Origin: Patescibacteria group bacterium
GTDB taxonomy: Bacteria > Patescibacteriota > Patescibacteriia > Patescibacteriales > UBA12465
Length of the DNA: 64,000 bases
Assembly: GCA_050949525.1 (NCBI GenBank)
Contig: JBMNFW010000001.1
Coordinates: 207,890 to 271,889 of the forward strand
Direction: 5' to 3'
Both the position numbers and the translations under genes were made by a program. Of the stretch, positions 3,360-60,171 are shown piece after piece. The notes under the pieces are model-generated. The model was not told the origin of the DNA, searched no databases, and worked only from the letters and a program-made list of their open reading frames with translations. Position 1 is the stretch's first letter. Each line of letters begins with the position of its first letter.

Positions 3360-3923
3360 ATGTTGAGAAATTTTTTGGAGTTTATTAAAATTGTTATTAT
3401 TTCTTTATTAATAATTTTACCGATTCGCTATTTTATTATTCAACCTTTTTATGTTAAGGGAGCTTCGATGGAGCCCAGTTTTCATGATCATGAATATTTA
3501 ATTATTGATGAAATTTCTTATCGCTTTCGAAGTCCGAATCGGGGAGAGGTGGTTGTTTTTCGATATCCGGAAAATCCGCAAGAATATTTTATTAAAAGAA
3601 TTGTAGCCTTACCTGGTGAGAAAATTGAGATTATTGATGGTAACGTTTTTATTTTTAATCGAGAGCATCCGGATGGATTTAAATTGAATGAAACATCTTA
3701 TTTATCAGATAATATCAAGACTTATAATGTGGAAGATGGTCCAGTGGAGTTAATGGATAATCAGTATTTTGTTTTAGGAGATAATCGTTATGCCTCTAAA
3801 GATTCTCGTAGTTTTGGTCCCTTAGATCGGAGTTTTATAATCGGTAAGGTTTTACTTCGAGGTTGGCCTTTTAGTCGCTTTACTACTTTTAGTTATGGCG
3901 ATGTTTATAATACTATTAATTAA
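3360..3923 (+). CDS. lepB: Signal peptidase I (S26)
   Basis: N-terminal TM helix, GASMEPS (Ser nucleophile), KRIVALPGE (Lys), GDNRYASKDSR box. Confidence 0.9.
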   Translation: MLRNFLEFIKIVIISLLIILPIRYFIIQPFYVKGASMEPSFHDHEYLIIDEISYRFRSPNRGEVVVFRYPENPQEYFIKRIVALPGEKIEIIDGNVFIFNREHPDGFKLNETSYLSDNIKTYNVEDGPVELMDNQYFVLGDNRYASKDSRSFGPLDRSFIIGKVLLRGWPFSRFTTFSYGDVYNTIN

Positions 3924-3929
3924 TTATTT

Positions 3930-5279
3930 ATGGAGAGAAAAAAAACCACTGCTCCTAGTAAAAAGGTAGCAAAAAAACCTAAATCTTCCAGTAAAGTCAT
4001 TTCTTATCCATTGGGGATGAAGGATGTTTTAGCTAATGATTATAAATTTTTAGATCCGGTTTTAAAAAAGATTGATGAAACAGCGCGAAATTATAGTTTT
4101 ACTAAGATTAACACTCCAATTTTCGAGGATTTGGCTTTATATCGAAAATTTTTTGATAAAGATAGATTAAAAAGTCTTTTTGTGTCAGAAGTTTCTACTA
4201 CTGAAAAATTAGCTTTACGTTTTGATTTGATTCATGGTTTAATTCGATCTTTAGAGCAACATTCTGTTTTTAATAATTTAGAAAAACCATTAAAATTTTT
4301 TTCTGTTGGACCAGTTTTTCGTCAAGAGAAAATTCGCAGCGGAACCTATCGCCAGTTTAATCAATTTAATTTTAGTATTGTTAATGATCCTAAGCCAGTA
4401 AGTGATGCTTTTCTAATTTATTTAGTTTATAATATTTTCAAAGAACTTCAAATTGATGTTCAGATTCAAGTTAATACTTTAGGAGATGATGCTTGTCAGA
4501 AAGATTTTCTAAATCATTTTTCTCGTTTTCTAAAAGAGAGAGGCCAGAAAACTAAACTTTGTAATGAGTGTAAAAAGAATTTATTAAAAAATCCAAAATT
4601 AATTTTGGAGTGTAATGAAAAGTCTTGTTTAGAACTTCGAAGCGAAGCTCCTCAGATTGTTGATTTCTTATCTGAAGAAAGTCATAGTCGTTTTTATAAA
4701 ACCATTGAATTTTTAGATGAATTAGAAGTTAATTATAATTTTAATCCTTCCTTAATTAAAGATTTGTCATATTATAATGATTTAATTTTTGAAGTTTGGC
4801 CTTTTGATAAAAATGGAAAAACTAACCCTTATTTAGCTTTAGGTAGAGGGGGGCATTATGATAAGGCCTTGAGTAAGGTTAGTGGAAAAAATATTTCTTT
4901 CTTGGGTTTTAGTGGTGGTTTAGAAAGAACTTTAATTAAAACCCGAGAGAATAATTTATTCATTGATGATAGTAAGGATATTATATTTTTAGCTCAATTA
5001 GATGTGAGTGCTAAGGCTAAATCCATGTTCTTATTTAAAGAACTTTTGAGTAAGGGTTATAACGTTAGACAGGCTTTTCATCTTGATGCCTTAAAAGCTC
5101 AATTAGAGGAAGCTAAAAGTCATAAGGCTAAAATAATTTTAATATTAGGTAAGAAAGAGTTAAGTGAAGAAACTATTTTATTCCGGGATACTGAATCGGG
5201 GGTACAGGAAATTATTGCGCAAAAAGATTTAATTTCTCGTTTAGAAAAATTTTTAAGTCAGGAGGGGAGCTTGAAATAA
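3930..5279 (+). CDS. hisS: Histidyl-tRNA synthetase with Lys-rich N-terminal extension
   Basis: GMKDVL N-terminal motif, class II motif 2 FRQEKIRSGTYRQFNQF, Cys-containing insertion (CNECKKNLLKNPKLILEC), C-terminal anticodon-binding domain. Confidence 0.85.
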   Translation: MERKKTTAPSKKVAKKPKSSSKVISYPLGMKDVLANDYKFLDPVLKKIDETARNYSFTKINTPIFEDLALYRKFFDKDRLKSLFVSEVSTTEKLALRFDLIHGLIRSLEQHSVFNNLEKPLKFFSVGPVFRQEKIRSGTYRQFNQFNFSIVNDPKPVSDAFLIYLVYNIFKELQIDVQIQVNTLGDDACQKDFLNHFSRFLKERGQKTKLCNECKKNLLKNPKLILECNEKSCLELRSEAPQIVDFLSEESHSRFYKTIEFLDELEVNYNFNPSLIKDLSYYNDLIFEVWPFDKNGKTNPYLALGRGGHYDKALSKVSGKNISFLGFSGGLERTLIKTRENNLFIDDSKDIIFLAQLDVSAKAKSMFLFKELLSKGYNVRQAFHLDALKAQLEEAKSHKAKIILILGKKELSEETILFRDTESGVQEIIAQKDLISRLEKFLSQEGSLK

Positions 5280-5338
5280 AAAAATATTGTGTTATATTAT
5301 AATATATTAAAATTAATAAACTAGAAAGGTGGTTATTT

Positions 5339-5566
5339 ATGGCTGATCTAAAAAGAAAAAAGGGTGAAAGTTTTGAGTCATTTCTTCGTCGTTTTCGAAG
5401 TAGTTTAAAGAATAATAAGAGATTAGAGACTTTTAGAAGTAAAAGAGCTTTTACTAAAGATAAAACCAAAACTCAGTTAAAGAATTCAGCTTTAGCTAGA
5501 ATTAAATTGGGAAAAAAGTTTGAATATCTAAGAAAAACTGGAAAAATTACAGATAATAGAAGATAG
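5339..5566 (+). CDS. rpsU: 30S ribosomal protein S21
   Basis: 75 aa, basic. ESFESFLRRFRSSLKNNKRLETFRSKRAFTK matches the S21 E-x-ALRRFK-type core. GGTGG Shine-Dalgarno 8 nt upstream. Confidence 0.75.
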   Translation: MADLKRKKGESFESFLRRFRSSLKNNKRLETFRSKRAFTKDKTKTQLKNSALARIKLGKKFEYLRKTGKITDNRR

Positions 5567-5582
5567 ATTTTGAATATAATAT

Positions 5583-5611
5583 AAAAGAAGGAGGTTGAAC
5601 CTCCTTCTTTT
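5583..5611. terminator. Bidirectional rho-independent terminator between rpsU (+) and rel (-)
   Basis: Perfect 12-bp stem AAAAGAAGGAGG / CCTCCTTCTTTT with loop TTGAA. A- and T-runs on both sides. Confidence 0.8.
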
Positions 5612-7064
5612 ATTTATGAAACATTTTCTTTATTTTATCCATGGTTTTATTTTTGGAGTATTGTTTTATTCTTTCACGAGCATGTCTTGTTTTAGCGAAA
5701 TTAAGCCATTGACTATTAGGTCCTTTACGGTTTCTGTCAGTAATTATTTCTACTAAATCACCATTTTTTAATTCGGTATCTAGGCTTGATATTTTTTTAT
5801 TAATTAGAGCTTGGGTGGCCTTATTACCAATATCAGTATGAATAGCATAAGCGAAGTCTATAGGGGTTGATCGGTCGGGCAACTCAATAACATCACCTTT
5901 AGGGGAGAAAACAAATATACGATTTTGAAAAATATTGGCGGTAATCTCATTAACAAATTCTTTTGTTTCTTGGTTTTCTTTTTGAATTTCTAATATATCT
6001 TTAATCCAACCCGGTTTTTCACTTTTTTCCATATCTCCCTTATAGTTCCAATGAGTTTGTAATCCATATAATGATTCTTGATGCATCTCTTCTGTTCTGA
6101 TTTGAAATTCCGTAGCTTTATTATCAATGCCTATTATAGTGGTATGAAGACTACGATATCCATTGGGTTTAGGAACTGCAATATAGTCTTTAAAGCGATG
6201 TGGGATTGGTTTCCAAATAGCATGAATTACTCCTAGAACTTTATAGCAATCCTCAATATTTTTGACTACTACTCTTAAGGCGAAAACATCATAAATCTCA
6301 TCAAATTTTCTGTCTTTGCGCTGCATTTTTTGCCAAATACTATAAAGGTGTTTAAAGCGGGCTGTAATTTCGTATTTTTCAATTTTAGTTTTTTTAAGTT
6401 CTTCTTCTAGCTTATCTTTAGTTCTTTGAAAAAATTGATTTCTTTCTGATTTTTTTTCAATTTCATATTTATATTCTATTTTTTTAAATTCTTTTGGATA
6501 AAGATATTTAAAGCAAATATCTTCCATTTGCCATTTAAGTCGCCAAATACCTAGAAGGCCAGCAATTGGAGCATATATTTCTAAGGTTTCTTTTGCGATT
6601 CTTTGTTGTTTATTTTCCGGTAAAGCATCTAGGGTTCTGAGATTATGTAAGCGATCACAGAATTTTATGTAAATAATTCTAATATCTCCAACCATGGCTA
6701 AAAACATTTTTCGAAGATTTTCTCGGTATCTTTCAATGCCACGATATTTTATTTTCCCCAACTTAGTAATACCCTCAACCAAAGAGGCGACATCGGCTCC
6801 AAAATTTTCTCTAATATCTTCAATAGTATAATTAGTGTCCTCAGGAACATCATGAAGTATCCCAGCTAAGATAGTACTAAGATCAGCCCTGATTTGTACT
6901 AAGTTATAAGCGGTGTGTAGGGGGTGTTGAATATATGGTTCACCACTTTTTCTGGTTTGTTCTTGATGAGCTCGGTCAGCAAATTGATAAGCTTTCATTA
7001 TTAAATCAGTGTTTATATTGGGATTTATTTCTTGAGCTTTTTTAATAAGCTTTTCAATGGTCAT
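5610..7064 (-). CDS. rel: RelA/SpoT-homologue (p)ppGpp synthetase/hydrolase, short form (HD-SYNTH-TGS only)
   Basis: HD motif ILHDVPEDT, RelA_SpoT synthetase core (YRSLHTTI, EFQIRT), TGS domain (IFVFSPKGDVIELP..GDLVEIIT). The protein ends about 60 aa after TGS. Confidence 0.85.
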   Translation of the reverse strand: MTIEKLIKKAQEINPNINTDLIMKAYQFADRAHQEQTRKSGEPYIQHPLHTAYNLVQIRADLSTILAGILHDVPEDTNYTIEDIRENFGADVASLVEGITKLGKIKYRGIERYRENLRKMFLAMVGDIRIIYIKFCDRLHNLRTLDALPENKQQRIAKETLEIYAPIAGLLGIWRLKWQMEDICFKYLYPKEFKKIEYKYEIEKKSERNQFFQRTKDKLEEELKKTKIEKYEITARFKHLYSIWQKMQRKDRKFDEIYDVFALRVVVKNIEDCYKVLGVIHAIWKPIPHRFKDYIAVPKPNGYRSLHTTIIGIDNKATEFQIRTEEMHQESLYGLQTHWNYKGDMEKSEKPGWIKDILEIQKENQETKEFVNEITANIFQNRIFVFSPKGDVIELPDRSTPIDFAYAIHTDIGNKATQALINKKISSLDTELKNGDLVEIITDRNRKGPNSQWLNFAKTRHARERIKQYSKNKTMDKIKKMFHK

Positions 7065-7144
7065 AGGTTTATTTATTTTAGACTTTATGATATAATAATA
7101 ATATAAAAAAAATAAATTAGCAATTTATAAATAAGTTATTTTTT

Positions 7145-9700
7145 ATGTTTAAGAGTAAAAAAATATTTCTTTTATTCTCTTTATTTTTCTTGTTTTCTAG
7201 CTTCTTGATAGTGAAAGGAGCTTTGGCCAATAATGTTGATGCCACTTTTGGTATTGATTATGTCGAGGGAAATGTTACTGGTATGAATCCGGAAACTGAT
7301 GGTATTAAATTAAGTAGCGCTGATCCTCGAACAGTCGCTGTCAAGATTATTAATGTTTTTTTAGGTTTATTGGGAATAATAGCCGTTAGTCTCATTATTT
7401 ATGGTGGCTTTATTTGGATGACCTCTGGTGGAAATGAAGAAAAAGTCACACAAGCTAGGAGAATTTTACGCAATGCGACTATTGGTTTAGCTATTATTTT
7501 AGCTTCTTGGGGCATTGTATCATTAATCTTTAGAAAAATGGCCGATACTGGATCTATGGGTTCTCCTCAACCTTCGGCTGGATCAATTAGTGCTGGTTTA
7601 GGAGCTATGGGTAATTGCTCTTTAGAAAGTGTTTATCCAGAGCCAGGACAAAAAGCTGTACCTCGTAATACTATGATCGTAGTTAATTTTAAAGAAGCTG
7701 TTAGTTCTAGTACTATTAATAATGAGACAGTTACTATTTGTCCTAAAGATAAATTTAATGATCAGAATAAAGAATGTTCTGAATTGCTGGACTTTAATGT
7801 AAGTACTAATGATGATAAAATTTTTGTTTTATCTCCTGATTCCTATTTAGGTAATGAAAACGGATTTTCTGATTATGTTGTTTATTTAAGCTCTAATATT
7901 TTAAAACTAGATGAGAATGTCAGTATTTTTTCTACCTGTTCTAAAGATAGTTTTTGGTGGGAGTTTGAAGTTAGTAATATTTTAGATTTAACTCCACCGA
8001 AAATTGAAAGTATTTTTCCTCAAGCTGATAATGAGGCTGATACTAGTAATATTGAAGCCCAATTAGCCTTCGCTGTTGCTAAGATTGGGGTTATTAATCA
8101 ACCTCAAGTTTATCAAGCGGCTCAGGTTTTATCTAATAATCCTGGTTCTGGTACTACTGCTACTACTACTATAAATTTAGGGTCAAATTATAATGGTCAA
8201 TACAGTAAATTTAAAATAGTGGTATCACATGCGGATGTTGATATGGATCCTCCTATTAGAGTTCAGTTAAGTGGAGTAAATAGTAATAATACTCTAAGTT
8301 TAATTGGATCTTTTGATTCAGTTGGTGATCAGATTAATTTTCCTGGATTCTTTTCTTTAAAATTTAATTCTATGCCAGTGGCTGGTAATTATTGGAATAT
8401 TGAAGTACAGAAAAAAGTTTCAGCTGATACTATTAAGGTAGGCCCTTATCTTTATACTTTTGTTGATGATGAGACTAGTGGTTATAACATTAAGTCTAGT
8501 AGTAATTATTCAGAAGTAGCTGAACAAATTCAAATCGCCCTAAGTTCTCATCCTAGTGTTAATGCTGAAGCTAATACTGCTTTTGTTAATTTAACCGCTA
8601 AAGTTGGGGGGGTAAGCGGTAATAATATTCATTTATCATCTTCCAATCCTGATATCATTAGTATTACCCCTTTTACTGGTGGTTCAGATTTTGTTGAAAC
8701 TATTCAAATAAAGGATAAAAAAGATAAACCAATGAATACCGTAATTCAAATTAATTTTAATGAAGCTGTTAATCCGGCTATGATAGTTGGTGAAAGTCAT
8801 GAGGTGGAGGATAAAATTAGGGTGGTGGATGTAGATAGTGGAGATTATATCGAAGGTTCATTTTCTATTTCATCTAATTTTAAAACTGTCGAGTTTAAAT
8901 CTAGTAATAAGTGTGGTGTAAATGGTTGTGGTGAAGATATTTTCTGTTTACCTCCTTTATCTAATATTAAAGTCGAATTAATAGCTGCTGGATTATATAA
9001 TTGTAACGATAATATTGATTGTAGTAATAAAGCTCCGTTTTCTACTTGTTCTAATAATTTTTGTGTTAATGCGGATAATAAGCGTTACCCATTATCAAAT
9101 CTTAATCAACCGGGAGTGATGGATATGGCGGCTAACTCTTTTGATGGTAACTCGGATGGTTATGCTTATGGACCAGCTACTTTTTATAACAAGAATGAAC
9201 CTCATGATCCTAATACCGGAGATAATTTTAAATGGTTTTTTTGGACTAATAATAAAATAGAGACTGCTCCACCAGAAATTGAATCTGTTAAGCCTAGGGT
9301 GGGAGAAACTGGTGCTAATATTTTTGAACCGATAGTTATTGATTTCAATAAATTAATGATGGCTAGTACTTTAAGAACTGGTCAAACTATTATTGGTAAT
9401 AAAACCCATCACTTAATTACACTTTCTGGTAACCAGTTAGTTGGTTATTGGATTTCTGCTGAAAATAAAGATGTTTCACCAATAGATGGGGAGCCTGATA
9501 AAACCACTGCCTATATTAATCATGATAGATTTTTTGAGTTAAGCAATTATACTAGTCAGGTGGGCTCTGGGGTTCGAGATATTTATCAGAATTGCTTTAA
9601 GCCTAGCGCTGGTCCTGGTTCTGATGAAAATACTTTTTGTACACCAACAGCCATAGAACCATTCTGTTGTAATGGGGTTGTTTCTAGTTCTTGCGAATAG
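7145..9700 (+). CDS. Large secreted/anchored Cys-rich surface protein with N-terminal VirB2/TrbC-pilin-like two-helix module and Ig-like (SbsA/Big_5-type) repeats
   Basis: Signal peptide, two hydrophobic helices around a basic loop (…IIYGGFIWMTSGGNEEKVTQARRILRNATIGLAIILASWGIV…), repeated P..G..V..N..I.V.F.EAV segments, Cys-dense C-terminal blocks. Confidence 0.6.
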   Translation: MFKSKKIFLLFSLFFLFSSFLIVKGALANNVDATFGIDYVEGNVTGMNPETDGIKLSSADPRTVAVKIINVFLGLLGIIAVSLIIYGGFIWMTSGGNEEKVTQARRILRNATIGLAIILASWGIVSLIFRKMADTGSMGSPQPSAGSISAGLGAMGNCSLESVYPEPGQKAVPRNTMIVVNFKEAVSSSTINNETVTICPKDKFNDQNKECSELLDFNVSTNDDKIFVLSPDSYLGNENGFSDYVVYLSSNILKLDENVSIFSTCSKDSFWWEFEVSNILDLTPPKIESIFPQADNEADTSNIEAQLAFAVAKIGVINQPQVYQAAQVLSNNPGSGTTATTTINLGSNYNGQYSKFKIVVSHADVDMDPPIRVQLSGVNSNNTLSLIGSFDSVGDQINFPGFFSLKFNSMPVAGNYWNIEVQKKVSADTIKVGPYLYTFVDDETSGYNIKSSSNYSEVAEQIQIALSSHPSVNAEANTAFVNLTAKVGGVSGNNIHLSSSNPDIISITPFTGGSDFVETIQIKDKKDKPMNTVIQINFNEAVNPAMIVGESHEVEDKIRVVDVDSGDYIEGSFSISSNFKTVEFKSSNKCGVNGCGEDIFCLPPLSNIKVELIAAGLYNCNDNIDCSNKAPFSTCSNNFCVNADNKRYPLSNLNQPGVMDMAANSFDGNSDGYAYGPATFYNKNEPHDPNTGDNFKWFFWTNNKIETAPPEIESVKPRVGETGANIFEPIVIDFNKLMMASTLRTGQTIIGNKTHHLITLSGNQLVGYWISAENKDVSPIDGEPDKTTAYINHDRFFELSNYTSQVGSGVRDIYQNCFKPSAGPGSDENTFCTPTAIEPFCCNGVVSSSCE

Positions 9701-9791
9701 GATTAATTTATTTAAGTTTTAAAAAATGGTTAAATTTTAATTAAGATGCTTTAATTAAGATATATAAATATTAATTATTAAATTTATTTTT

Positions 9792-10817
9792 ATGTCAAAA
9801 GATAAAAAGACTAAAGAATTAAAAAATGATAAATCTGAAGCGGCAGCTTTAGCTATGCAACAGATTAAAACTAAATTTGGTGATGGAGCTATAATGAAAT
9901 TTGGTGAAGCTCGAAAGGTTAATGTTGACGCTATTTCTACTGGTTGTTTATCTTTAGATTTAGCCTTTGGTATTGGTGGTGTGCCTCGAGGTAGGATTAT
10001 TGAAATTTTTGGACCCGAATCTTCTGGAAAAACTACTCTAGCTCAACACATTGTAGCTGAGGTTCAAAAAACAGGTGGAATTGCTGCTTTTGTGGATGCA
10101 GAGCATGCTTTAGATCCAGATTATGCTGAGAAAATTGGTATCAATGTTAAGGAAATGTTAATTTCTCAACCAGATACCGGAGAACAAGCCTTAGAGATTG
10201 TTGAAACTTTAGTTCGATCTAATGCGGTGGATGTTATTGTGGTTGATAGTGTGGCGGCGTTAGTGCCTCAAAAAGAAATTGAAGGTGATATGGGAGATCA
10301 GCACATGGGTCTTCAAGCTCGTTTAATGAGTCAAGCTTTAAGAAAGTTAACTGGTATTGTAGCTAAAACTAAAACAGTAGTTATCTTTATTAATCAAATT
10401 AGAAATAAAATAGGAGTATTCTTTGGTAATCCTGAAACTACTAGTGGAGGGAATGCTTTAAAATTTTATTCTTCAGTTCGGGTAGAGGTTCGACGCAGTG
10501 CTCAAATTAAACAAGGTGATCGGATTATTGGAAATCGAGTTAAAGCTAAGGTGGTTAAGAATAAGGTCGCTGCTCCTTTTAAGTCCACTGAGTTTGATAT
10601 TATGTATAATGAAGGTATTTCTGTAGCCGGTGATTTAATAGATTTAGGAGTTGAGTATGCGGTGATTAAAAAATCAGGTAATTCTTATTCTTTTGGGAGT
10701 AATAAATTAGGGGTGGGACGAGAAGCTGCTAAAAATAATTTAAAAACTCAAGAAAAATTAATGAAGGAAATTAGAGCCAAAATATTAGAGGAGTATAATA
10801 AGTCAGATAAAAAATAA
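9792..10817 (+). CDS. recA: Recombinase RecA
   Basis: Walker [23 protein letters not shown]1/L2 loop regions. Full-length colinearity with RecA. Confidence 0.97.
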
Positions 10818-10819
10818 TT

Positions 10820-11500
10820 ATGCTTCATGTTTTATCTTTAGGTGGTTCCTTATTTTCTTTAGCTGATGGCTTAAATTTAAAATTTTTAAAGGAGTTTAAA
10901 AAATTGATTATAAAGCGAGTTGCCCTGGGAGATAAATTTATTATTGTGGTGGGCGGAGGAGCTTTAGCTCGTAGTTATATAAAAGTAGCTGGTGATTTAA
11001 ATCCTAGTTTAACGGATGAAAATAAAGATTATCTTGGTATTGATGCTACTATTATTAATGCTAATTTATTTAAGATGATTTTTTCTGAGCTTGCTCGTCC
11101 ACAACTTTTAAGTAATCCTAATAAAAAAGAAAGATTAAATAAGGCTTTAAATTTTTCTGGGGGTTATAAACCTGGAGCTTCAACTGATTTTGTAACAGCT
11201 AGATTAGCCAAAACTTATCAAGTCGATACTATTGTTAATCTATCTAATATTGATTATGTCTATGATCGAGATCCTAATAAATTTCCTGAAGCTCAAGTTA
11301 TAAAAAAAATGAGATGGTCGGAATTTCTAAATATTAGTGGAGATAAGTGGTCCGCTGGTTTAAATCTTCCTTTTGATCCAATTGCTTCTAAGTTTTGCCA
11401 GAAGAATAATAAAAAAGTAATAATTCTTAATGGTCGGAATATCAGAAATTTAGAAAATTATTTTCTTAATAAAAAATTTAAAGGAACGGTAATATATTAA
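10820..11500 (+). CDS. pyrH: UMP kinase, archaeal-type (amino-acid kinase fold)
   Basis: 226 aa. LGGS...VVGGGALAR.Y, GGYKPGASTD and NIDYVYDRDP motifs parallel archaeal PyrH. Confidence 0.65.
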   Translation: MLHVLSLGGSLFSLADGLNLKFLKEFKKLIIKRVALGDKFIIVVGGGALARSYIKVAGDLNPSLTDENKDYLGIDATIINANLFKMIFSELARPQLLSNPNKKERLNKALNFSGGYKPGASTDFVTARLAKTYQVDTIVNLSNIDYVYDRDPNKFPEAQVIKKMRWSEFLNISGDKWSAGLNLPFDPIASKFCQKNNKKVIILNGRNIRNLENYFLNKKFKGTVIY

Positions 11501-11511
11501 TTTAAAAAAAT

Positions 11512-11841
11512 ATGAGTAAAGAAAAAAAGTCTTTTTCTTTTTTTAAGGGGCTTATTGCTTTCTTAAAAGAATATTCAGTTTTAGGCTTGGCCATCGGTTT
11601 AATAATTGGACAAGCTTCTAAGGATTTAGTTGACTCCATTGTTAATGGTCTTTTTATGCCTTTAATTCAGTTAATAATATCAAAAGATAATTTTGCTGAT
11701 CTTAGCGTTAAGATTGGTGATGCTAGCCTAGAGTTTGGTTTAGTTTTAAGCTCTTTTTTAACTTTTGTTATTGTTATGAGTTTGCTTTATTTTATTGTTA
11801 AGAAGATTATAAAAAATGATCAACTCTTATCAAAAAAATAA
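11512..11841 (+). CDS. mscL: Large-conductance mechanosensitive channel MscL
   Basis: 109 aa, FKEYSVLGLAIGLIIGQA TM1 signature, second TM helix, basic C-terminus. Confidence 0.8.
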   Translation: MSKEKKSFSFFKGLIAFLKEYSVLGLAIGLIIGQASKDLVDSIVNGLFMPLIQLIISKDNFADLSVKIGDASLEFGLVLSSFLTFVIVMSLLYFIVKKIIKNDQLLSKK

Positions 11842-12310
11842 AATTATACTTGGTTTAGATCCTGGAATTGCTGATACTGGTTTTGGTGTTATTTCAGTGG
11901 CTGGAAGTAAGATTAGTAGCCTGGATTATGGTTCTATAAAAACTAGTCCGAAGGATGATTTTTTAGATCGGCTTTTAAAATTAGATCAAGAACTAAAGAA
12001 AATTATTGATAAATATCAGCCTGATTTAGTTTGCATTGAAAAACTTTTCTTTAATAATAATGCTAAAACTGCTTTAATAGTTGGTCAAGCTCGAGGGGTT
12101 TTAATGTTACGAATTAAGAAAAGTGGTGCGAAGTTATTAGAACTTACTCCTCTACAGATTAAGCAGGGTATTAGCTGTTTTGGTCGAGCTGATAAAAATC
12201 AAGTTAAAAAAATGATAAAATTAATTTTAAATTTAAAAGAAGTTCCTAAGTCTGATGATGCGGCTGATGCTTTAGCGGCGGCTATCTGTGCTTCTAATTT
12301 AAAAATATGA
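11816..12310 (+). CDS. ruvC: Crossover junction endodeoxyribonuclease RuvC
   Basis: ILGLDPG..TGFGVI catalytic Asp motif, C-terminal DAADALAAAIC. 26-nt overlap with mscL. Confidence 0.85.
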   Translation: MINSYQKNKIILGLDPGIADTGFGVISVAGSKISSLDYGSIKTSPKDDFLDRLLKLDQELKKIIDKYQPDLVCIEKLFFNNNAKTALIVGQARGVLMLRIKKSGAKLLELTPLQIKQGISCFGRADKNQVKKMIKLILNLKEVPKSDDAADALAAAICASNLKI

Positions 12311-13770
12311 AAAAAATGAAAATAGTTCATGTAGTGGCCGAAGTATCTCCTTTTTCAAAAACCGGCGGTTTAGGAGATGTGGCTCGAAGTTTACCTAAAG
12401 CTTTATTTCGTTTAGGTCACGAAGTTTCAGTTATTACTCCCTTATATGGTCGAATAATTGATAAGAAAAAACATAATTTAAAACTAATTTTTAAGGATAT
12501 TAATTTAGTAGTTGATACTGAAACTTCAGTTAAAATTAATGTTTGGCGAGGGTCCTTAATTGATGGTTTAGCAGTTTATTTTATTGAAAATAAAGAGCAT
12601 TTTTCTAAGTATAAAAAGATATATGTTTCTTCTAAGGATAATCTTCGTTTTTTGATTTTTAATTTAGCGGCTTTAAGGCTTTTAAATTTATTAAATAATA
12701 AGCCTGATATTATTCATTGTCATGATTGGCACACTGGATTAGTCCCTTATTTTATTAAAAATAAACATCGTTATACTAAAAATCTAGGATCAGTCAAAAC
12801 TATTTTTACTATTCATAATTTAGCTTTTCAAATGGGGCGTTCTTGGTATAGTATCCCATCGGAAAAAAAGGATTATGGTCGTCGTAAATTACCTTTAAGT
12901 ACTGATGATGATATTTATAATATTAACTTTGCTAAGCGAGCTATTCTAACAGCTGATATTATTAATACAGTTAGTGAACGGTATCGAGAGGAGATTATGA
13001 CTAAAAAATTTGGTCAAGATCTTCATCGAATTTTAAGGAATCGAGAAAATCGTTTATTCGGCATTATTAATGGTATTGATTATAATTCCTATAACCCTAA
13101 AAAGGACCAGGCTTTATATAAACGGTATAGTTTTGATGATCATCATTTAAAAAGTGAGAATAAAAAATATTTACAAAAAAAGTTAGGCTTTACGATTGAT
13201 GAAAATATACCATTTTTTTGTTCCACTTCTCGTATTGCTTATCAAAAAGGCTTTGATATTATTCTAGCCACCTTACCTCATTTATTAAAACTGGATGTTC
13301 AAATTATTTTTATAGGTGATGGTGATCATAATTATATTAAGGAGATTAAAAAATTAGTTAAGAAGTATCCTAAAAAAATTGCTTGGTGGCCATTTTTAAA
13401 GAATCAGAAAAAAGAAACCTTACTTTATGCGGCTTCTGATTTTTTTATTCTTCCTTCTTATTATGAGCCTTGTGGTATAAATCAAATGATTGCTATGAGA
13501 TATGGAGCTATACCAATTGTTCGAGATATTGGTGGCCTTTATGATACGGTTAGTAATTTTAGCCCCTTAACTAATAAGGGAACTGGTTTTGTATTTAAAC
13601 CAGCCGATGAGTTTGCCTTTTTCTGGGCTATTACTAGAGCTTTAGAGAATTATAAATACAAAAAAGTTTGGGCTAATTTAGTTAGTCGAGCGATGCGTCG
13701 TTCTAGTAGTTGGGAGATTCCAGCTCAAAAATATGTAAAATTATATAAGAGAGCTTTAAAGTTAAAATAA
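12307..13770 (+). CDS. glgA: Glycogen/starch synthase (GT5)
   Basis: N-terminal E.SPFSKTGGLGDV motif, C-terminal PS.YEPCG..Q. ATGA overlap with ruvC. Confidence 0.9.
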   Translation: MKKMKIVHVVAEVSPFSKTGGLGDVARSLPKALFRLGHEVSVITPLYGRIIDKKKHNLKLIFKDINLVVDTETSVKINVWRGSLIDGLAVYFIENKEHFSKYKKIYVSSKDNLRFLIFNLAALRLLNLLNNKPDIIHCHDWHTGLVPYFIKNKHRYTKNLGSVKTIFTIHNLAFQMGRSWYSIPSEKKDYGRRKLPLSTDDDIYNINFAKRAILTADIINTVSERYREEIMTKKFGQDLHRILRNRENRLFGIINGIDYNSYNPKKDQALYKRYSFDDHHLKSENKKYLQKKLGFTIDENIPFFCSTSRIAYQKGFDIILATLPHLLKLDVQIIFIGDGDHNYIKEIKKLVKKYPKKIAWWPFLKNQKKETLLYAASDFFILPSYYEPCGINQMIAMRYGAIPIVRDIGGLYDTVSNFSPLTNKGTGFVFKPADEFAFFWAITRALENYKYKKVWANLVSRAMRRSSSWEIPAQKYVKLYKRALKLK

Positions 13771-13775
13771 TTTTT

Positions 13776-14936
13776 ATGTTAAAGTGGATTAATTTTTTAC
13801 ATTTATATCAACCAGTAAACTCTGATGCTTATAAAATAGAGGAGGCTTTAAATTTAAGCTATCGTCGCATTTTTCAAGCTCTAGAAGATAATAGAAACAT
13901 AAAATTTACTTTTAATATTTCCGGAGGATTGATTAGTCGTTTAGCTGATTTAAAAGAGGGGAGGAAATTAATCACTAAGATTAATAAATTAATTAATCGG
14001 GGTCAGGTAGAGTTAGTCGGTTCCGCTGCTTATCATGCTTTATTACCATTAATAAGTGAGGCTGAGGTTATTGATCAAATAAAGGAGCAAGAGTTGATTA
14101 TAAAAAAACATTTTCCTCAGGCTAAATTAAAAGGGTTTTTTTTGCCAGAAATGGCTTTTAGTTCTAAAGTTGCTAAGATTATTAAGGCTCAATCTTATCA
14201 ATGGTTAATATTAGATGAAATTTCTTATGCTGGGAAAGAAAAAATTAATTATCAAGAAACTTATTTAGATTCGTTTAGTAATTTAAAAATTATTTTTCGT
14301 TCTCGTCGTTTTTCAAATTCCTATATTCCTGAAACAGTCGAAACTTTACTCAATAATGATATGGTATTAATAACGGCTAGTGATGGAGAGCTTCATGGTC
14401 TTCGGCATCATGATTTGAATGGATCTTTAGAGCGAGTTTTGAAAAACTCTAAAATTGAAACTAGATTAATTTCTGATTTTATTAAGAACTTTAAAAATCC
14501 GAAGAAAATTAATCTCAGGTCTAGTAATTGGGAGTCCACTATTGATCAGCTTAAAGCTCGAAAACCTTTTTATCTTTGGTATAATAAAGATAATGAGATA
14601 CAAATGAAATTATGGAAATTAGCTCAATTGAGTGAAAAAATGATTAATAAATATCCTAAGGATATTAATCATTCTTGGGCTCGTTGGCATTTTGTTAGAG
14701 GTTTAGCTAGTTGTACTTTTTGGTGGGCTAGTGCTTATGATTTTAAACATAATTTTGGTCCCAAGGCTTGGAGTCCTGATGAAATCGAGCGGGGGGTCGA
14801 TGAGTTTATTCGAGCTATTCGATCTTTAGAAAATTCTACTACTTTAAGGGAAAAAAGATCTTCTGAAGAGTTATTAATATTAATTAAGAGATTGGTCTGG
14901 TTAGAGCACTGGACTTATCAGAAAAAATATGAATAA
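13776..14936 (+). CDS. Glycoside hydrolase family 57-like protein
   Basis: LHLYQP N-terminal signature, FFLPEMAF (nucleophile-region-like) and SDGELHG motifs. Position directly after glgA. Confidence 0.6.
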   Translation: MLKWINFLHLYQPVNSDAYKIEEALNLSYRRIFQALEDNRNIKFTFNISGGLISRLADLKEGRKLITKINKLINRGQVELVGSAAYHALLPLISEAEVIDQIKEQELIIKKHFPQAKLKGFFLPEMAFSSKVAKIIKAQSYQWLILDEISYAGKEKINYQETYLDSFSNLKIIFRSRRFSNSYIPETVETLLNNDMVLITASDGELHGLRHHDLNGSLERVLKNSKIETRLISDFIKNFKNPKKINLRSSNWESTIDQLKARKPFYLWYNKDNEIQMKLWKLAQLSEKMINKYPKDINHSWARWHFVRGLASCTFWWASAYDFKHNFGPKAWSPDEIERGVDEFIRAIRSLENSTTLREKRSSEELLILIKRLVWLEHWTYQKKYE

Positions 14937-36814: not shown

Positions 36815-38053
36815 ATGAAACAGTCTTTTTTATTTACTAAAACAATTAAAGATTTACCTAAAGATGAGAGTTCTTATAACGCTCAGATTTTAATTCAGGG
36901 TGGTTTTATTGATAAACTAGGGGCGGGAATTTATACTTTTTTACCTTTAGGATTGAGAGTTTTAAATAAAATTAATAATATTATCCGGGAGGAGATGGAG
37001 CGAGTGGGGGGGCAGGAAATTTTAATGCCCGCTCTAACCCCTAAAGATATTTGGCAAAAAACTGATCGTTGGGATAATTTCGATGCTTTATTTAAACTTT
37101 TAGGTTCAGATAATAAGGAGTATGCTTTAGGGGCTACTCATGAAGAGGTAGTGACTCCTTTAGCTCAGAATTTTACTCATTCTTGGCGTGATCTTCCTTT
37201 GTCTATTTTTCAGATTCAAACTAAGTTTCGTAATGAAAAAAGGGCTAAGGCCGGATTAATTAGAGGTCGAGAGTTTTTAATGAAGGATCTTTATTCTTTT
37301 CATAGTTCTGAAGAAGATTTGAATCAATATTATGAACAACTTATTAAAGCCTATTTTAAAATCTTTGAAAGATTAGGTTTAAAAGATATCACTTATTTAA
37401 CCTATGCCTCAGGTGGAGCTTTTTCACCTTATTCTCATGAATTTCAGACTTTATGTTCTTCAGGAGAGGATTTGATATATATTTGTGATAAATGTTCTAT
37501 AGCTATTAATCAAGAAATAATTGATGAACAAAAAATTTGTCCTGAATGTGGTGGATCTGACTTTAAAGAGGAAAAAGCAGTGGAGGTGGCTAATATTTTT
37601 AAATTAGGTACCAAATTCTCTAAAGCTTTTAGTCTTCATTATATTGATCAAGCTGGAGAAAAACAGGATGTTATTATGGGTTGCTATGGTATTGGTCCGA
37701 GCCGAGTTATGGGAACTATCGCCGAGGTTTGTCATGATGAAAAAGGAGTTAAATGGCCTCGAGAAATTGCGCCTTTTTCAATTCATTTAATATCATTAAA
37801 AGAAAATGAATCGGCAGAAAAAATTTATCAGGAATTAATGTCTAATAATTGGGAGGTTTTGTATGATGATAGAGATAATGTTTCTCATGGAGAAAAATTT
37901 GCTGATGCTGATTTGATTGGTTGTCCTCTTAGAATAGTGTTAAGTTCTAAAACTTTAGCTAAAAATCAAGTTGAGCTTAAATTTCGAGATCAGGATGAAT
38001 TAATTATGCTTGATATTAAAGAGTTATTAGATTATTTAAAGAAATATGTTTAA
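36815..38053 (+). CDS. proS: Prolyl-tRNA synthetase, bacterial-type core without the INS editing domain
   Basis: N-terminus and motif 2 (IFQIQTKFRNEKRAKAGLIRGREFLMKDLYSF) colinear with bacterial ProRS. Only about 60 aa lie between motifs 2 and 3, containing CDKC...CPEC. C-terminal anticodon-binding domain. Confidence 0.85.
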   Translation: MKQSFLFTKTIKDLPKDESSYNAQILIQGGFIDKLGAGIYTFLPLGLRVLNKINNIIREEMERVGGQEILMPALTPKDIWQKTDRWDNFDALFKLLGSDNKEYALGATHEEVVTPLAQNFTHSWRDLPLSIFQIQTKFRNEKRAKAGLIRGREFLMKDLYSFHSSEEDLNQYYEQLIKAYFKIFERLGLKDITYLTYASGGAFSPYSHEFQTLCSSGEDLIYICDKCSIAINQEIIDEQKICPECGGSDFKEEKAVEVANIFKLGTKFSKAFSLHYIDQAGEKQDVIMGCYGIGPSRVMGTIAEVCHDEKGVKWPREIAPFSIHLISLKENESAEKIYQELMSNNWEVLYDDRDNVSHGEKFADADLIGCPLRIVLSSKTLAKNQVELKFRDQDELIMLDIKELLDYLKKYV

Positions 38054-39089
38054 GATTTTTAATAAAATTGGAAAATTTGGTCAAGATGTCGTAATTGATT
38101 TAGGTACTAAAAATACCTTAGTTTATGTTAATAAAAAGGGAATAGTGGTTAATGAGCCGAGTGTGGTGGCTATTAATACCAAAACTGCTGAAATATTAGA
38201 GATTGGGCATGAAGCTAAAAAAATGGTAGGAAAAACTCCGGCCCATATTCAGGCTGTTAAGCCTTTAGTTGATGGGGTTATTTCTGATTTTGAGGTTACT
38301 GAAAAAATGCTTAAACATTTTATTAATCAGGTTCGAGGTGAGGGTTTTTCTTTAGCTCCGCGTCCTCGAGTTATTATTGGTATTCCTTTAGATATTACTG
38401 AGGTAGAAAAGAAGGCTGTAGAAGATGCGGCTAAATCAGCTGGGGCTCGAAAAGTCTTTTTAATTGAGGAGGTGATGGCAGCAGCTTTAGGAGCTGGATT
38501 ACCAGTGGATTCTCCGCGAGCTAATATGATAGTTGATATTGGGGGTGGAACTACCGATATCGCAGTTATTTCTTTGTCTGGTGTGGTTTCTTGGAAATCT
38601 TTGCGTCTAGCTGGAAATGAGTTGGATAATAATATTACTGATTATGTGCGAGATAATTTTAATGTTTTAATCGGAGAACAGTTAGCTGAGAGAGTAAAAA
38701 TTAATTTAGCTTCAGTTCTTCCTTTTGATGAAGATCGTTCTATGGAGATTAGAGGTCGAGATTTAATTAATGGTTTACCGACAGCTATTGTTATTACTGA
38801 TGTTCAAGTTCGAGAAGCTATTAAGAGAACTATTATTAAAATAATTGAGAATATTAAATTAACTTTAGAAGAAACTCCACCGGAATTAGTTGCTGATATT
38901 TATGAGCATGGTTTGTATTTAAGTGGTGGTGGAGCTCTGCTTTATGGTTTAGATAAATTAATATCTAAAGCTACTAAAATACCAGTAATTTTGGTTGAAG
39001 ATCCCTTGTCAGCTATTGTTCGAGGAGCGGGGGAGCTTTTTTCTAATGAAGAATTATTAAAGAAGATTAGCTCTAATGTAAGTGTTTAG
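38046..39089 (+). CDS. mreB: Rod-shape-determining actin homologue MreB
   Basis: IDLGT.NT, EPSVVA, DIGGGTTD, LSGGGALL motifs. Followed by mreC and mreD. Confidence 0.95.
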   Translation: MFKIFNKIGKFGQDVVIDLGTKNTLVYVNKKGIVVNEPSVVAINTKTAEILEIGHEAKKMVGKTPAHIQAVKPLVDGVISDFEVTEKMLKHFINQVRGEGFSLAPRPRVIIGIPLDITEVEKKAVEDAAKSAGARKVFLIEEVMAAALGAGLPVDSPRANMIVDIGGGTTDIAVISLSGVVSWKSLRLAGNELDNNITDYVRDNFNVLIGEQLAERVKINLASVLPFDEDRSMEIRGRDLINGLPTAIVITDVQVREAIKRTIIKIIENIKLTLEETPPELVADIYEHGLYLSGGGALLYGLDKLISKATKIPVILVEDPLSAIVRGAGELFSNEELLKKISSNVSV

Positions 39090-39095
39090 TCGATT

Positions 39096-39902
39096 ATGAG
39101 TTTTATAAAGAATAAAAAGTTTTATAAATTTTTTTTAGCAGTGATAGTACTGCTTGTTTTTTTAAATATTATCGGATTTTCTTCTTGGGGACAACGGATT
39201 TTTTTTAAGATAGTTTATCCAGAAAGTTTTTTTATTAAAAATTTTACTTCTTTCTCTTTATTAGATACTAAATCTCGAAAATCTTTAATTAAAGATTTAA
39301 GAGAATTAGAAAAAAAAGTAGAGTCCAACCAAGTAGATTTAGCGCAACTTGATTCCTTGAGAAAAGAAAATGAAAAATTACGACAATATCTAAATTTTTT
39401 TGAAGAAAAGAATTATGATTATGTTTTAGCTCGAGTTTTATGGTCGGAAAATTTATTAAATTTAAGTACTTATAATCAAAATATAGTAATTGATAAAGGG
39501 AAAAAAGATGGACTTCGGGCGGGCTTAGTAGTTATTAATGAGTCTGGGGTAGTAGTAGGTAAGGTTATTGAGGTTAATGATAGTAGCTCTCGGGTTTGTT
39601 TGGTTAATAATAATTTTTGTAAAATAGCCGTTAGTATAAATAATCCTAGCTCTAGTTCTGGATTAGCGGAAGGAGATTTGGGTTTATCTATTAAACTTAA
39701 TTTTATTCCTCAAAATGAAGAAGTTCAGGTGGGTGATTTATTATTAAGTTCTGGGTTAGAGAGAGATATTCCTGCTGGATTAGCGGTAGCTCGAATTAAT
39801 AATGTCGAACAGAAGGTGAATGATATTTGGCAAAAAATTAATGCTGAAGCTCTTTTTAATATTAATAATTTAAATATAGTTTCAGTAATTATTCCTAGAT
39901 AA
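39096..39902 (+). CDS. mreC: Rod-shape-determining protein MreC
   Basis: N-terminal TM helix, coiled coil (LRKENEKLRQ), beta-barrel region (GKKDG...G..V....G.VGKV). Confidence 0.8.
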   Translation: MSFIKNKKFYKFFLAVIVLLVFLNIIGFSSWGQRIFFKIVYPESFFIKNFTSFSLLDTKSRKSLIKDLRELEKKVESNQVDLAQLDSLRKENEKLRQYLNFFEEKNYDYVLARVLWSENLLNLSTYNQNIVIDKGKKDGLRAGLVVINESGVVVGKVIEVNDSSSRVCLVNNNFCKIAVSINNPSSSSGLAEGDLGLSIKLNFIPQNEEVQVGDLLLSSGLERDIPAGLAVARINNVEQKVNDIWQKINAEALFNINNLNIVSVIIPR

Positions 39903-39903
39903 C

Positions 39904-43801: not shown

Positions 43802-43805
43802 TTTT

Positions 43806-45776: not shown

Positions 45777-45781
45777 AATAA

Positions 45782-60149: not shown

Positions 60150-60171
60150 ATTTTTGCTATATTATATTAGT

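Follow-up and report, generated by a model that had tools for sequence, protein, structure and literature searches.

The gene under study lies in a 64,000-nucleotide stretch of Patescibacteria DNA (hereafter the window), in which an ORF with an ATG start extends over positions 7145..9700 of the plus strand and encodes a product of 851 aa. Its coordinates and strand, as well as its placement between rel and recA, agree with a preliminary description of the region. The genes and the parts of the protein can be listed as follows:

5610..7064, minus strand: rel (RelA/SpoT), divergent and conserved upstream neighbour; context, outside the protein.
7145..7228, plus strand: predicted signal peptide of the signal peptidase I type, aa 1-28 (MFKSKK...IVKGALA/NN), from sequence, hydropathy and AF2.
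7229..7318, plus strand: acidic, variable, presumed extracellular N-terminal segment, aa 29-58, followed by a DPR motif (aa 60-62), from pLDDT, identity and charge.
7319..7546, plus strand: putative VirB2-like pilin module, aa 59-134, with helix 1 (61-92), loop WMTSGGNEEK and helix 2 (98-134), from PF18895 and AF2.
7547..7603, plus strand: flexible Gly/Ser/Ala/Pro-rich linker, aa 135-153, from pLDDT and low identity.
7604..8002, plus strand: Big_5 Ig-like domain 1, aa 154-286 (PF13205, 32.6 bits at aa 159-258).
8003..8704, plus strand: unclassified middle domain, aa 287-520, modelled by AF2 as a beta-sandwich plus an alpha/beta subdomain (aa ~430-520).
8705..9259, plus strand: Big_5-like domain 2 with a Cys-rich insert, aa 521-705 (PF13205, weak, 13.6 bits at aa 526-590).
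9260..9700, plus strand: Big_5 domain 3 with a C-terminal Cys block, aa 706-851 and stop (PF13205, 23.8 bits at aa 707-816).
9792-10817, plus strand: recA, downstream of the 851-aa gene.

The 851-aa gene is real and old. Species-level Patescibacteria genomes with homologues of the same architecture number at least 577, and in nearly all of them the gene adjoins rel. Such a distribution indicates that the architecture did not arise by chance, and the presence of the gene family in related genomes, on which the preliminary description had made its reading depend, was thereby established. Alignment of 85 homologues of independent origin showed the architecture to be uninterrupted over lengths of 820-940 aa, and a copy 99% identical to the window gene was present on an independent ENA contig (P0001). 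These data refute the idea that an error of assembly or gene calling, or a frameshift, had fused the genes of a small pilin and a surface protein, for which nothing speaks beyond the general risk of metagenome-derived sequence and whose probability we regard as negligible. The median identity of the protein was 38%, as compared with 44% for HisS, revealing a slightly faster divergence, and the gene has the appearance of a core gene that is passed on vertically in Falkowbacteria-type ultra-small bacteria.

The conserved neighbours of the gene in related loci are housekeeping genes. The rel gene was located immediately upstream in 74 of 84 loci, with its syntenic copies matching Pfam HD_4/RelA_SpoT/TGS, and lepB, encoding signal peptidase I, was kept three genes upstream in about 60 of the 84. 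No genes for T4SS or type IV pilus machinery flank the 851-aa gene, as had been described, and none were found in the whole 64-kb window; in the search for secretion machinery, 40 ORFs between 16.8 and 63 kb were scanned with Pfam, with housekeeping genes as the only result, and T4SS genes were also absent within 10 kb of the orthologs in four Pfam-annotated relatives (L001-L004). A 749-aa ATPase encoded in the window was considered as a coupling protein and rejected, since its 4TM, alpha and gamma domains identify it as a genuine FtsK. Searches of the window for paralogues or stand-alone pilins, carried out by phmmer with the module and the full protein and with a module HMM, gave no match, and a scan for promoters and terminators at the locus yielded no signal exceeding shuffled expectation.

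Analysis of the N-terminus confirmed the predicted signal peptide, MFKSKKIFLLFSLFFLFSSFLIVKGALA, in which a basic n-region is followed by a hydrophobic core and N29 is preceded by an ALA site; its hydrophobic segment was placed at aa 4-22 by a hydropathy scan and its helix at aa 5-27 by AF2. The two hydrophobic helices reported earlier were recovered as hydropathy segments at aa 61-79 and 107-125, at a distance from the signal peptide of about 35 aa instead of 40. AF2 modelling resulted in the two helices listed above with pLDDT values of about 87-92, preceded by a stretch of pLDDT below 50 (aa 23-58), in which the acidic N-terminal segment showed a mean identity of 0.23. The charge of the loop region (aa 92-110, +4/-2) and of the pre-helix segment (aa 29-62, +2/-6) would fit a topology with both ends outside and the loop inside once the signal peptide has been cleaved.

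The likeness of this module to conjugative pilins, proposed in the preliminary description, held for one family profile and failed for the other. T4SS_pilin (PF18895) was matched at 39.0 bits against a curated cut-off of 26.6, and at 42.3 bits by the N-terminal 140 aa alone, the match spanning aa 63-128 of the protein and positions 7-71 of the 71 in the profile, whereas TrbC/VirB2 (PF04956) was unmatched at E<=1. Scores with NCBIfam NF045849 (30.1-34.4 bits) were under its curated cut-off of 40. Solved pilins similar in sequence were not found by phmmer, by the family profile or by the module alone, and the two solved structures that did turn up in the family-profile and module searches, an antibody heavy chain and ND1, were dismissed as chance matches. 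N_methyl (IPR012902) was unmatched by the window protein, whose signal peptide is of the signal peptidase I type and not of class III. As judged from sequence, the hairpin would belong to the VirB2-like family, with an indirect tie to the classical conjugative pilins.

Our tentatively preferred reading is that the 851-aa protein is a modular VirB2-like (T4SS-type) pilin made up of a carrier unit, a short flexible linker and a large displayed ectodomain. It draws support from the above-cut-off match along the full PF18895 profile, and from the AF2 model of the whole protein (mean pLDDT of 88.3), in which the hairpin is followed by a disordered linker and a confident ectodomain; the failure of PF04956 and the sequence dissimilarity of solved pilins count against it. 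Among the orthologs, the pilin module showed the highest mean identity (0.58), followed by the domains of the ectodomain (0.33-0.50) and the linkers (0.21-0.23). This conservation includes the presumably cytoplasmic loop, when in a generic anchor one would expect hydrophobicity alone to be preserved, which argues for a modular pilin. It is left unexplained if the pilin-derived hairpin was co-opted as a plain double-pass anchor, so that the protein would be an unpolymerised adhesin or fibril of the cytoplasmic membrane of a monoderm cell, independent of any T4SS. We consider such a static anchor somewhat unlikely, even though it would agree with a gene unlinked to T4SS genes in a housekeeping neighbourhood conserved in at least 74 loci; these same features, together with the lack of a stand-alone pilin in the window, speak against the modular pilin.

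The recurrence of the module at the N-terminus of Patescibacteria proteins, another element of the earlier account, was borne out on a large scale: at E<=1e-3 the module was found in 28,980 cluster representatives, of which many are 600-4,410 aa long and have a single module at aa ~40-130. All 50 module-bearing relatives tested matched PF18895, and only 13 of the 50 reached PF04956, with a best E of 3.2e-7. Stand-alone pilins of 115-135 aa have the same signal-peptide layout as the 851-aa protein, and their chain ends within about 10 residues past helix 2, whereas 717 residues lie beyond helix 2 in the window protein. The module is 51-64% identical to those of stand-alone pilins and shares their conserved positions, a likeness that is inflated by the fact that the stand-alone and giant comparison sets are the best matches to the query. 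The DPR motif before helix 1 is kept in orthologs, stand-alone pilins and giants alike. The same module also heads unrelated giants of up to 4,410 aa with TIG, fn3, SUEL-lectin and ConA-like lectin domains, and it occurs in two to eight copies in tandem polypilins. Both the closeness to stand-alone pilins and the presence of the module in giants and polypilins favour the modular-pilin reading, and a static anchor accounts neither for that closeness nor for the polypilins. It is true that extraction of proteins of up to 4,410 aa from the membrane is hard to picture, which is a point in favour of the anchor.

Examination of the related loci revealed that a second giant with a near-identical module directly follows the gene in 68 of the 84, an arrangement that also supports the modular pilin; in most relatives this neighbouring giant is of 1,500-3,500 aa. 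The neighbours of the gene in most relatives form a cluster for envelope proteins (a giant, a He_PIG protein and a TSP3 protein) and are not ATPases, which speaks for the static anchor, and in the window clade the gene is present without its partner genes. At one locus (L089), a Fib_succ_major domain is carried by two N_methyl carriers and one T4SS_pilin carrier within 25 kb, the copies on the different carriers being 31% identical (E = 1e-17) and the type IV pilin neighbours matching N_methyl at 29-34 bits. This swap of cargo between carriers is a further argument for a modular pilin. Other module genes had no VirB4 within reach at six loci (P0191, P0213, P0263, P0171, P0200, P0122), whose surroundings were pilin arrays or envelope-protein clusters. 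A published VirB4-positive listing covers three ortholog-bearing Falkowbacteria genomes, with VirB4 unlinked to the ortholog (Table S1, PMC12102498), and a cultivated Saccharibacterium cannot do without its VirB2-like pilins (PMC10633639); both observations lend support to the modular-pilin reading.

The linker immediately after helix 2 is disordered (pLDDT below 50 at aa 134-148), rich in Gly, Ser and Pro and poorly conserved (mean identity 0.21). These properties would also suit a module acting as an export or retention leader, with a cut within aa 135-153 and an ectodomain freed or passed on. Classical VirB2/TrbC pilins undergo C-terminal processing, and the conserved lepB upstream could be taken as a further hint at such release, which we nevertheless judge very improbable: the linker has no conserved cleavage motif, no dedicated protease gene is linked, and lepB is a housekeeping gene whose proximity may be a coincidence.

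Regarding the ectodomain, three of the four Big_5-type segments of the preliminary description open Big_5 matches, and the fourth, IESIFPQADNE (aa 287-297), opens a domain without a Pfam match. The whole protein scored 51.5 bits with Big_5 (PF13205) against a curated cut-off of 23.6. The two Cys-dense blocks described earlier were confirmed, with seven Cys in aa 590-640 (nt 8912-9064) and five in aa 817-850 (nt 9593-9694). The protein contains 16 Cys, all in the ectodomain, and its Cys content is 1.9%, in comparison with 0.67% in the other 56 ORFs of the window (binomial P = 2.8e-4 overall, and 5e-8 and 3e-6 for the first and second block, respectively). The 12 Cys of the blocks are invariant or 99% conserved in the 85 orthologs: six are invariant in the first block and four in the second, and C635 and C832 are each conserved at 99%. 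In Big_5 domain 1, C158 and C265 are each conserved at 91%. This domain and the Big_5-like domain 2 segment, in which D660, N664 and D667 are invariant, were modelled by AF2 with pLDDT above 90.

Among solved structures, the whole model was matched best by two S-layer proteins, SbsC (4uj6, E = 1.5e-7) and Sap (8rw9). Big_5 represents the SbsA type of Ig domain, the gene looks core and vertically inherited as stated above, and ultra-small groundwater cells show periodic envelope layers (PMC7906910), all of which would be compatible with an S-layer-like coat of Ig-like chains tethered by hairpins, the modules lying side by side in the plane of the membrane. However, the TM-scores with SbsC were only 0.12-0.14, values that correspond to generic strings of Ig domains, and neither SLH nor other wall-binding domains were found by Pfam in the 851-aa protein. 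Its conserved Cys and overall Cys content also set it apart from SbsA/SbsC-type proteins, as does the hairpin; to our knowledge, high Cys content is atypical for S-layer proteins. Since the window clade, in addition, has the gene without its partners, we hold an envelope lattice to be distinctly improbable.

The middle domain had no Pfam match over aa 287-520. Modelled alone, it reached an AF2 pLDDT of 96, and among the folded regions of the protein it varies most (mean identity 0.33). Its fold matches were outer or accessory domains of flagellin, FlgL and phage tail sheaths, along with uncharacterised phage proteins, and this likeness to the accessory outer domains of helical filament proteins favours the modular-pilin reading. 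A phage origin of the domain was rejected, as the likeness is one of fold only and 50,697 phage records contained no matching sequence. Fold matches to LdtMt2 had rmsd values of 17-31 Å and TM-scores of about 0.3, consistent with mainly its Ig-like domains being matched, and an L,D-transpeptidase ectodomain was also discarded.

Comparison with known systems places the N-terminal part of the protein close to the PF18895 VirB2-like pilins of the same phylum, with which it shares the signal peptide, the DPR motif, the hairpin and a WMTxGGNEEK loop (PMC10633639, PMC12102498). Described members are of about 110-140 aa and often arrayed or near virB4, whereas the window protein has an extra 700-aa C-terminal ectodomain and stands alone among housekeeping genes. 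By gene position, the ortholog at L023 apparently lies outside the six components given for GCA_000999715.1 in Table S3 (PMC12102498). The protein also shares the topology class of TrbC/VirB2 (PF04956) and F-type TraA, in which a leader peptide is followed by two hydrophobic helices with a short loop between them in the cytoplasm. TrbC/VirB2 and TraA have both termini outside, so that a C-terminal extension would face outward. It differs from TrbC/VirB2, apart from the lack of profile and solved-structure matches, in the monoderm organism, the very large C-terminal fusion and the absence of linked VirB4 or other mating-pair-formation genes in the 64-kb window and within 10 kb in the four annotated relatives. 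We know of no VirB2-type pilin with a large C-terminal fusion, experimental filament formation by a PF18895 member was not found in the literature examined, and both points count against the modular-pilin reading; large PF18895 fusions are likewise not described in the literature searched, the coverage of which was incomplete.

A precedent for a carrier plus effector, which supports the modular-pilin reading, is provided by the modular type IV pilins PilB/PilC of Streptococcus sanguinis, CofB and ComZ (PMC8179133). They have in common with the window protein an N-terminal carrier, a short linker and a bulky module, with lectin, Ig and vWA-type cargos, and the cargo at L089 is found on both carrier types. 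Falkowbacteria and Magasanikbacteria are among the published examples (Raynaud et al. 2021, PMC8179133). The carrier families are unrelated, with a two-helix hairpin in the window protein in place of a single alpha-1 helix, and the assembly machinery would be a T4SS and not a type IV pilus; the likeness is an analogy in architecture, not membership. PrgB of pCF10, a Gram-positive conjugation adhesin, is similar in its monoderm setting and its chain of Ig-like domains, to which the fold search gave a weak and generic match (8beg, E = 5e-5, probability 0.23). PrgB is reportedly wall-anchored and not fused to a pilin. Homologues of PrgB were not detected in Patescibacteria (PMC12102498).

According to the modular-pilin reading, the protein would be exported via Sec and cleaved by signal peptidase I after Ala28. 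The model, the charges and the position of all Cys distal to helix 2 suggest that its two helices enter the membrane as a hairpin whose basic loop faces the cytoplasm, leaving the N-terminus and the 700-residue C-terminal part outside, where the ectodomain is predicted to fold into a disulfide-stabilised structure of three Big_5 Ig-like domains and a variable middle domain and might serve as an adhesin or contact structure. The pilin module may associate with other module-bearing proteins, such as stand-alone pilins and, in most relatives, the neighbouring giant, and an unlinked VirB4/TrsD system would probably be able to handle the 851-aa protein through this module. The result would be a low-stoichiometry display on a VirB2-like filament or at its end, and not an inert monomeric anchor; association of the module, handling by VirB4/TrsD and display make up the least certain step. 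Adhesin activity, host contact and polymerisation are putative properties of the 851-aa protein. The interpretation in the preliminary description is supported in part: its checks by pilin and Big_5 profiles, by recurrence of the module and by presence of the gene family in related genomes were all positive, and neither of the outcomes that it named as refuting was observed.

Monoderm conjugation systems are normally without a pilus. In the sole genetically tractable Patescibacterium, the T4SS and the VirB2-like pilins are essential, with a role that has been called completely unknown (PMC11665869, PMC10633639). The present data indicate that a VirB2-like pilin may act as carrier for a large surface protein, as described until now for the unrelated type IV pili only. 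A wider proposal, which we regard as unlikely at present, would be that the VirB2-like T4SS pilin is a general surface-protein carrier and that filaments of chromosomal, relaxase-less T4SSs are capped or decorated by giant Ig- and lectin-bearing modular T4SS pilins, the 851-aa protein forming part of a host-contact organelle in the role of the VirB5-type tip adhesin, which is almost absent from these systems. If true, modular pilins would have their first class beyond the type IV filaments, and the T4SS of Patescibacteria, essential and unexplained, would gain a concrete function. Should the modules carry large adhesin-like cargos, an attachment or contact organelle would become a more natural reading of this T4SS, the modular principle would reach a second filament family unrelated to type IV pili, and the variable middle domain of the 851-aa protein and the lectin domains of its paralogues would be candidates for host recognition. 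If the module is an anchor only, one domain family, with the number of cluster representatives given above, would be the standard tether of the phylum for giant surface proteins, and counts of VirB2 homologues in genome surveys would mix pilins with anchored surface proteins.

Finally, the most conserved motif of the ectodomain is QVGSGVRDIYQNCFKP (aa 805-820), with a conservation of 0.83 for aa 801-820. A Ser-His-Cys site composed of the invariant S808, H755, H793 and C817 was unsupported, as no enzyme families were matched even at E<=10. The C-terminal domain, in which H755, H793 and S808 are all invariant, possibly holds a conserved binding site.

The window protein, the 851-aa product of a single ORF, was found to carry all the features listed in the preliminary description, including the signal peptide and the two Cys-dense blocks. 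Its segments are as follows.

Window 7145..9700 (+), single ORF of 851 aa
aa 1-28, signal peptide: basic n-region, hydrophobic core and Ala-Leu-Ala site
aa 59-134, module: VirB2-like pilin hairpin
aa 159-258, Big_5 unit, 32.6 bits (piecewise scan)
aa 526-590, Big_5 unit, weak, 13.6 bits (piecewise scan)
aa 590-640 (nt 8912-9064), Cys block, 7 Cys
aa 707-816, Big_5 unit, 23.8 bits (piecewise scan)
aa 817-850 (nt 9593-9694), Cys block, 5 Cys

Hydropathy analysis placed two helices around a basic loop, as described previously, at aa 61-79 and 107-125, starting about 35 residues past the signal peptide and not about 40; in the AlphaFold2 model they span aa 61-92 and 98-134 (pLDDT about 87-92). The loop carries charges of +4/−2 and the segment preceding helix 1 of +2/−6, so that after signal-peptide cleavage the loop should lie inside and both termini outside. 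All 16 cysteines are distal to helix 2, their share being 1.9% vs 0.67% in the other window ORFs, and across 85 orthologs 12 of them are either invariant or 99% conserved. The odd number in each conserved block implies either one inter-block disulfide or a free conserved Cys in each. C817 lies within the most conserved motif, QVGSGVRDIYQNCFKP, close to invariant H755, H793, and S808.

Comparison of the hairpin with Pfam T4SS_pilin (PF18895) gave 39.0 bits (cut-off 26.6), the match covering positions 7-71 of the 71 in the profile, in agreement with the pilin-like module originally proposed, and the whole protein scored 51.5 bits against Big_5 (PF13205; cut-off 23.6). Three of the four segments read earlier as Big_5-type correspond to Big_5 units; aa 287-520 had no family match in the piecewise Pfam scan, so the remaining segment, aa 287-297, marks the start of another domain. 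On these searches, the window protein is tied to classical conjugative pilins only indirectly: it did not match TrbC/VirB2 (PF04956) at E<=1, scored under the cut-off of NCBIfam NF045849 (Mycoplasma ICE pilin-like protein), and matched no solved pilin by sequence search, while 13 of 50 module-bearing relatives reached PF04956 (best E = 3.2e-7).

The full-length model, built from an 85-sequence alignment, had a mean pLDDT of 88.3 and a pTM of 0.71, with pLDDT <50 confined to aa 1-4 and 23-58 and to the linker (aa 134-148). Its whole-chain fold matches were strings of Ig-like domains with low TM-scores (S-layer SbsC, E. coli alpha-2-macroglobulin, the Ig domains of PrgB and LdtMt2, CopC, and Sap). 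Modelled by itself, the middle domain reached pLDDT 96. Its fold resembled the outer, accessory domains that helical filament proteins carry, with matches to a Geovibrio flagellin, to FlgL, to phage tail sheaths, and to an uncharacterised protein of phage RcTitan (92 columns, rmsd 1.5 A, 33% identity); these fold comparisons revealed no signs of an enzyme, and no phage relatives of the domain were found at the sequence level among 50,697 phage records. Altogether, the data support a protein exported through Sec, with an Ig-like, disulfide-rich ectodomain of adhesin type that is held outside the cell by the pilin-family hairpin.

At a mean identity of 0.58 to the window protein, the hairpin is the most conserved region of the family; the ectodomain domains reach 0.33-0.50 and the two linkers 0.21-0.23. 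Searched exhaustively, the 86-residue module retrieved 28,980 cluster representatives at E<=1e-3 (4,843 at E<=1e-10), in line with the suggestion that such modules recur at the N-terminus of Patescibacteria proteins. Among the 146 top representatives not previously collected, 66 were tandem proteins of 2-8 modules, about 15 were true stand-alone pilins (115-135 aa, ending just past helix 2), and 59 were fusions of 223-4,410 aa with one module each, which in all but one of them lay at about aa 40-155. In sets formed by the best matches to the query, the window module was 51-64% identical to stand-alone pilins and 53-62% to giants, the very large proteins with the same N-terminal module, and all three kept DPR, the LG.LGIIAV stretch, and the WMT.GGNEEK loop.

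The tandem proteins, or polypilins (P0121-P0146 and others, 208-820 aa; for example at L017:3948-4703 (−)), have one signal peptide followed by 2-8 hairpin modules with short external linkers. The survey PMC12102498 describes separate-gene pilin arrays, and we noticed no fused ones in it. Stand-alone relatives occur in arrays of 5 genes at locus L085 (3006-5219) and 16 at L092. The latter (5145-14393; also L093) consists of consecutive T4SS_pilin genes of 109-427 aa, including one four-module polypilin, and exceeds the 2-11 genes reported for such arrays in PMC12102498. A gene for an SBP_bac_1 solute-binding protein adjoins both arrays, and no VirB4 was found within reach of either locus.

Directly after the ortholog, 68 of 84 loci encode another large protein (1,500-3,500 aa) whose module is near-identical and whose ectodomain is unrelated (TIG, Big_5, fn3). 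It is followed by genes for a Cys-rich He_PIG protein of ~1,050 aa, a single-pass protein of ~105 aa, and a protein of ~250 aa bearing calcium-binding repeats of the bacterial TSP3 type, and in most relatives the ortholog thus heads a conserved five-gene envelope cluster:

L054:9998-22945, five-gene cluster
L010:10016-23014, five-gene cluster
L002:10001-22682, five-gene cluster
L091:1688-13769, five-gene cluster

In the window clade, genes 2-5 are lost or moved, none being present at the ortholog site or within the 64-kb window. At L089 (121-18050; also L090), a 2,758-aa T4SS_pilin giant bears a Fib_succ_major domain that matches those of two nearby type IV pilin (N_methyl) proteins (31% identity, E = 1e-17, all within 25 kb), and one cargo is therefore found on two unrelated pilin-type carriers. 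After this giant come a Flg_new protein (1,516 aa) and a TSP3 protein. At L001:1-2465, diversity-generating-retroelement-like genes (bAvd accessory protein, then RVT_1 reverse transcriptase) lie right after a type IV pilin-like gene (N_methyl, faint Fib_succ_major), which may be the variable target of the retroelement.

We tentatively prefer a modular-pilin reading, in which the module keeps pilin-type interactions and does not act as an inert tether. In favor of it are the sequence constraint on the module, cytoplasmic loop included, the module's close match to stand-alone pilins, its recurrence both in polypilins and on many different cargos, and the swap of carriers seen with type IV pilins. 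The nearest functional precedent is the modular type IV pilin, probably located at the tip (PMC8179133), by analogy only since the carrier family differs.

The genomic context bears on a static membrane tether. The gene lies between rel (−) and recA (+), as previously placed; rel is directly upstream of the ortholog in 74/84 loci, and lepB-hisS lie upstream in about 60/84. The absence of flanking T4SS machinery noted before extends to the whole 64-kb window, which holds housekeeping genes only, and no T4SS genes were found within 10 kb of the ortholog in four Pfam-annotated loci. That the gene is not linked to a T4SS, lies among housekeeping genes, and has envelope proteins as partners favors the main rival, a static anchor, which we consider rather unlikely and place behind retained pilin-type interactions. 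Below both stand an S-layer-like lattice, which is improbable, release of the ectodomain, which is very improbable, and an artefact, whose likelihood is negligible. It has to be noted that in those ~60 loci lepB (signal peptidase I, Peptidase_S26 by synteny with L001 and L003; window 3360-3923 (+)) keeps its place three genes upstream of the gene for the pilin fusion; the arrangement may be coincidental, a product of housekeeping synteny, or may have a bearing on pilin processing.

Of 8,000 candidates scored in the protein database, 293 were homologues at E<=1e-3; the top 120 of them (788-1,086 aa, 35-59% identity) carry both Pfam domains with few exceptions, and one further copy is 99% identical to the window protein. 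The family is present in related genomes, a relative being encoded in at least 577 species-level genomes, whose informative record titles read Falkowbacteria, Patescibacteria or Parcubacteria; the lineage is class ABY1 in GTDB (Table S1, PMC12102498). It is an old core gene, whose product diverges only a little faster than HisS (median identity 38% vs 44%, with Rel and LepB at 64%). At L005, L011, L012, L015, L016, and about 30 further loci with this Patescibacteria-type gene and its synteny, many MAG records are titled 'uncultured Gammaproteobacteria bacterium', one 'Candidatus Nanoarchaeia archaeon', and one 'Candidatus Saccharimonadales'; the Gammaproteobacteria and Nanoarchaeia titles are at odds with that synteny and probably represent placeholders or taxonomic mislabelling.

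Three ortholog-bearing genomes are VirB4-positive according to Table S1 of PMC12102498:

GW2011_GWF2_43_32 (L023)
RIFOXYA2_FULL_47_19 (L042)
HGW-Falkowbacteria-1 (L003, window clade)

In GW2011_GWF2_43_32, genes 572-573 encode VirB4 and TrsD, apparently at a distance from the ortholog. For this assembly (GCA_000999715.1), Table S3 of the survey gives six components (two T4CP, Tfc7, VirB4, TrsD, and one VirB2), from which, judged by gene position, the ortholog and its giant neighbour, both with PF18895, are apparently absent; T4SS surveys may under-count or filter out large PF18895 fusions. VirB2-like pilins occur in 1,948 VirB4-positive assemblies, close to virB4 in 1,135 of them (PMC12102498), and a pilin array is essential in Southlakia epibionticum (PMC10633639). 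It is already known that this pilin family exists, abounds in Patescibacteria, and is essential, and in NCBI some orthologs bear the name 'pilin' or 'Ig-like domain-containing protein'; in the literature searched we found no description of the class of large C-terminal fusions on the PF18895 carrier or of this conserved core-genome member. The evidence is solid and offers a testable handle on an open question, but the key mechanistic step is putative.

Elsewhere in the window, a lone rve-type integrase or transposase (HTH and rve domains; 52583-53632 (−)) lies amid housekeeping genes, in a stretch of about 50-54 kb where genes turn to the minus strand and GC skew falls to ~0. Three sizeable ORFs had no Pfam match at E<=1e-3: 60154-62055 (+) of 633 aa and 57135-57971 (−) of 278 aa, both in a glycosyltransferase/rhamnose-synthesis region, and 39904-40440 (+) of 178 aa, found with two MreB paralogues and MreC (38046-40440 and 47098-48111). 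An HlyD-like protein and an ABC transporter of the MacB type, with two permeases and a single ATPase (41897-47038), show a tripartite-efflux layout in a presumed monoderm.
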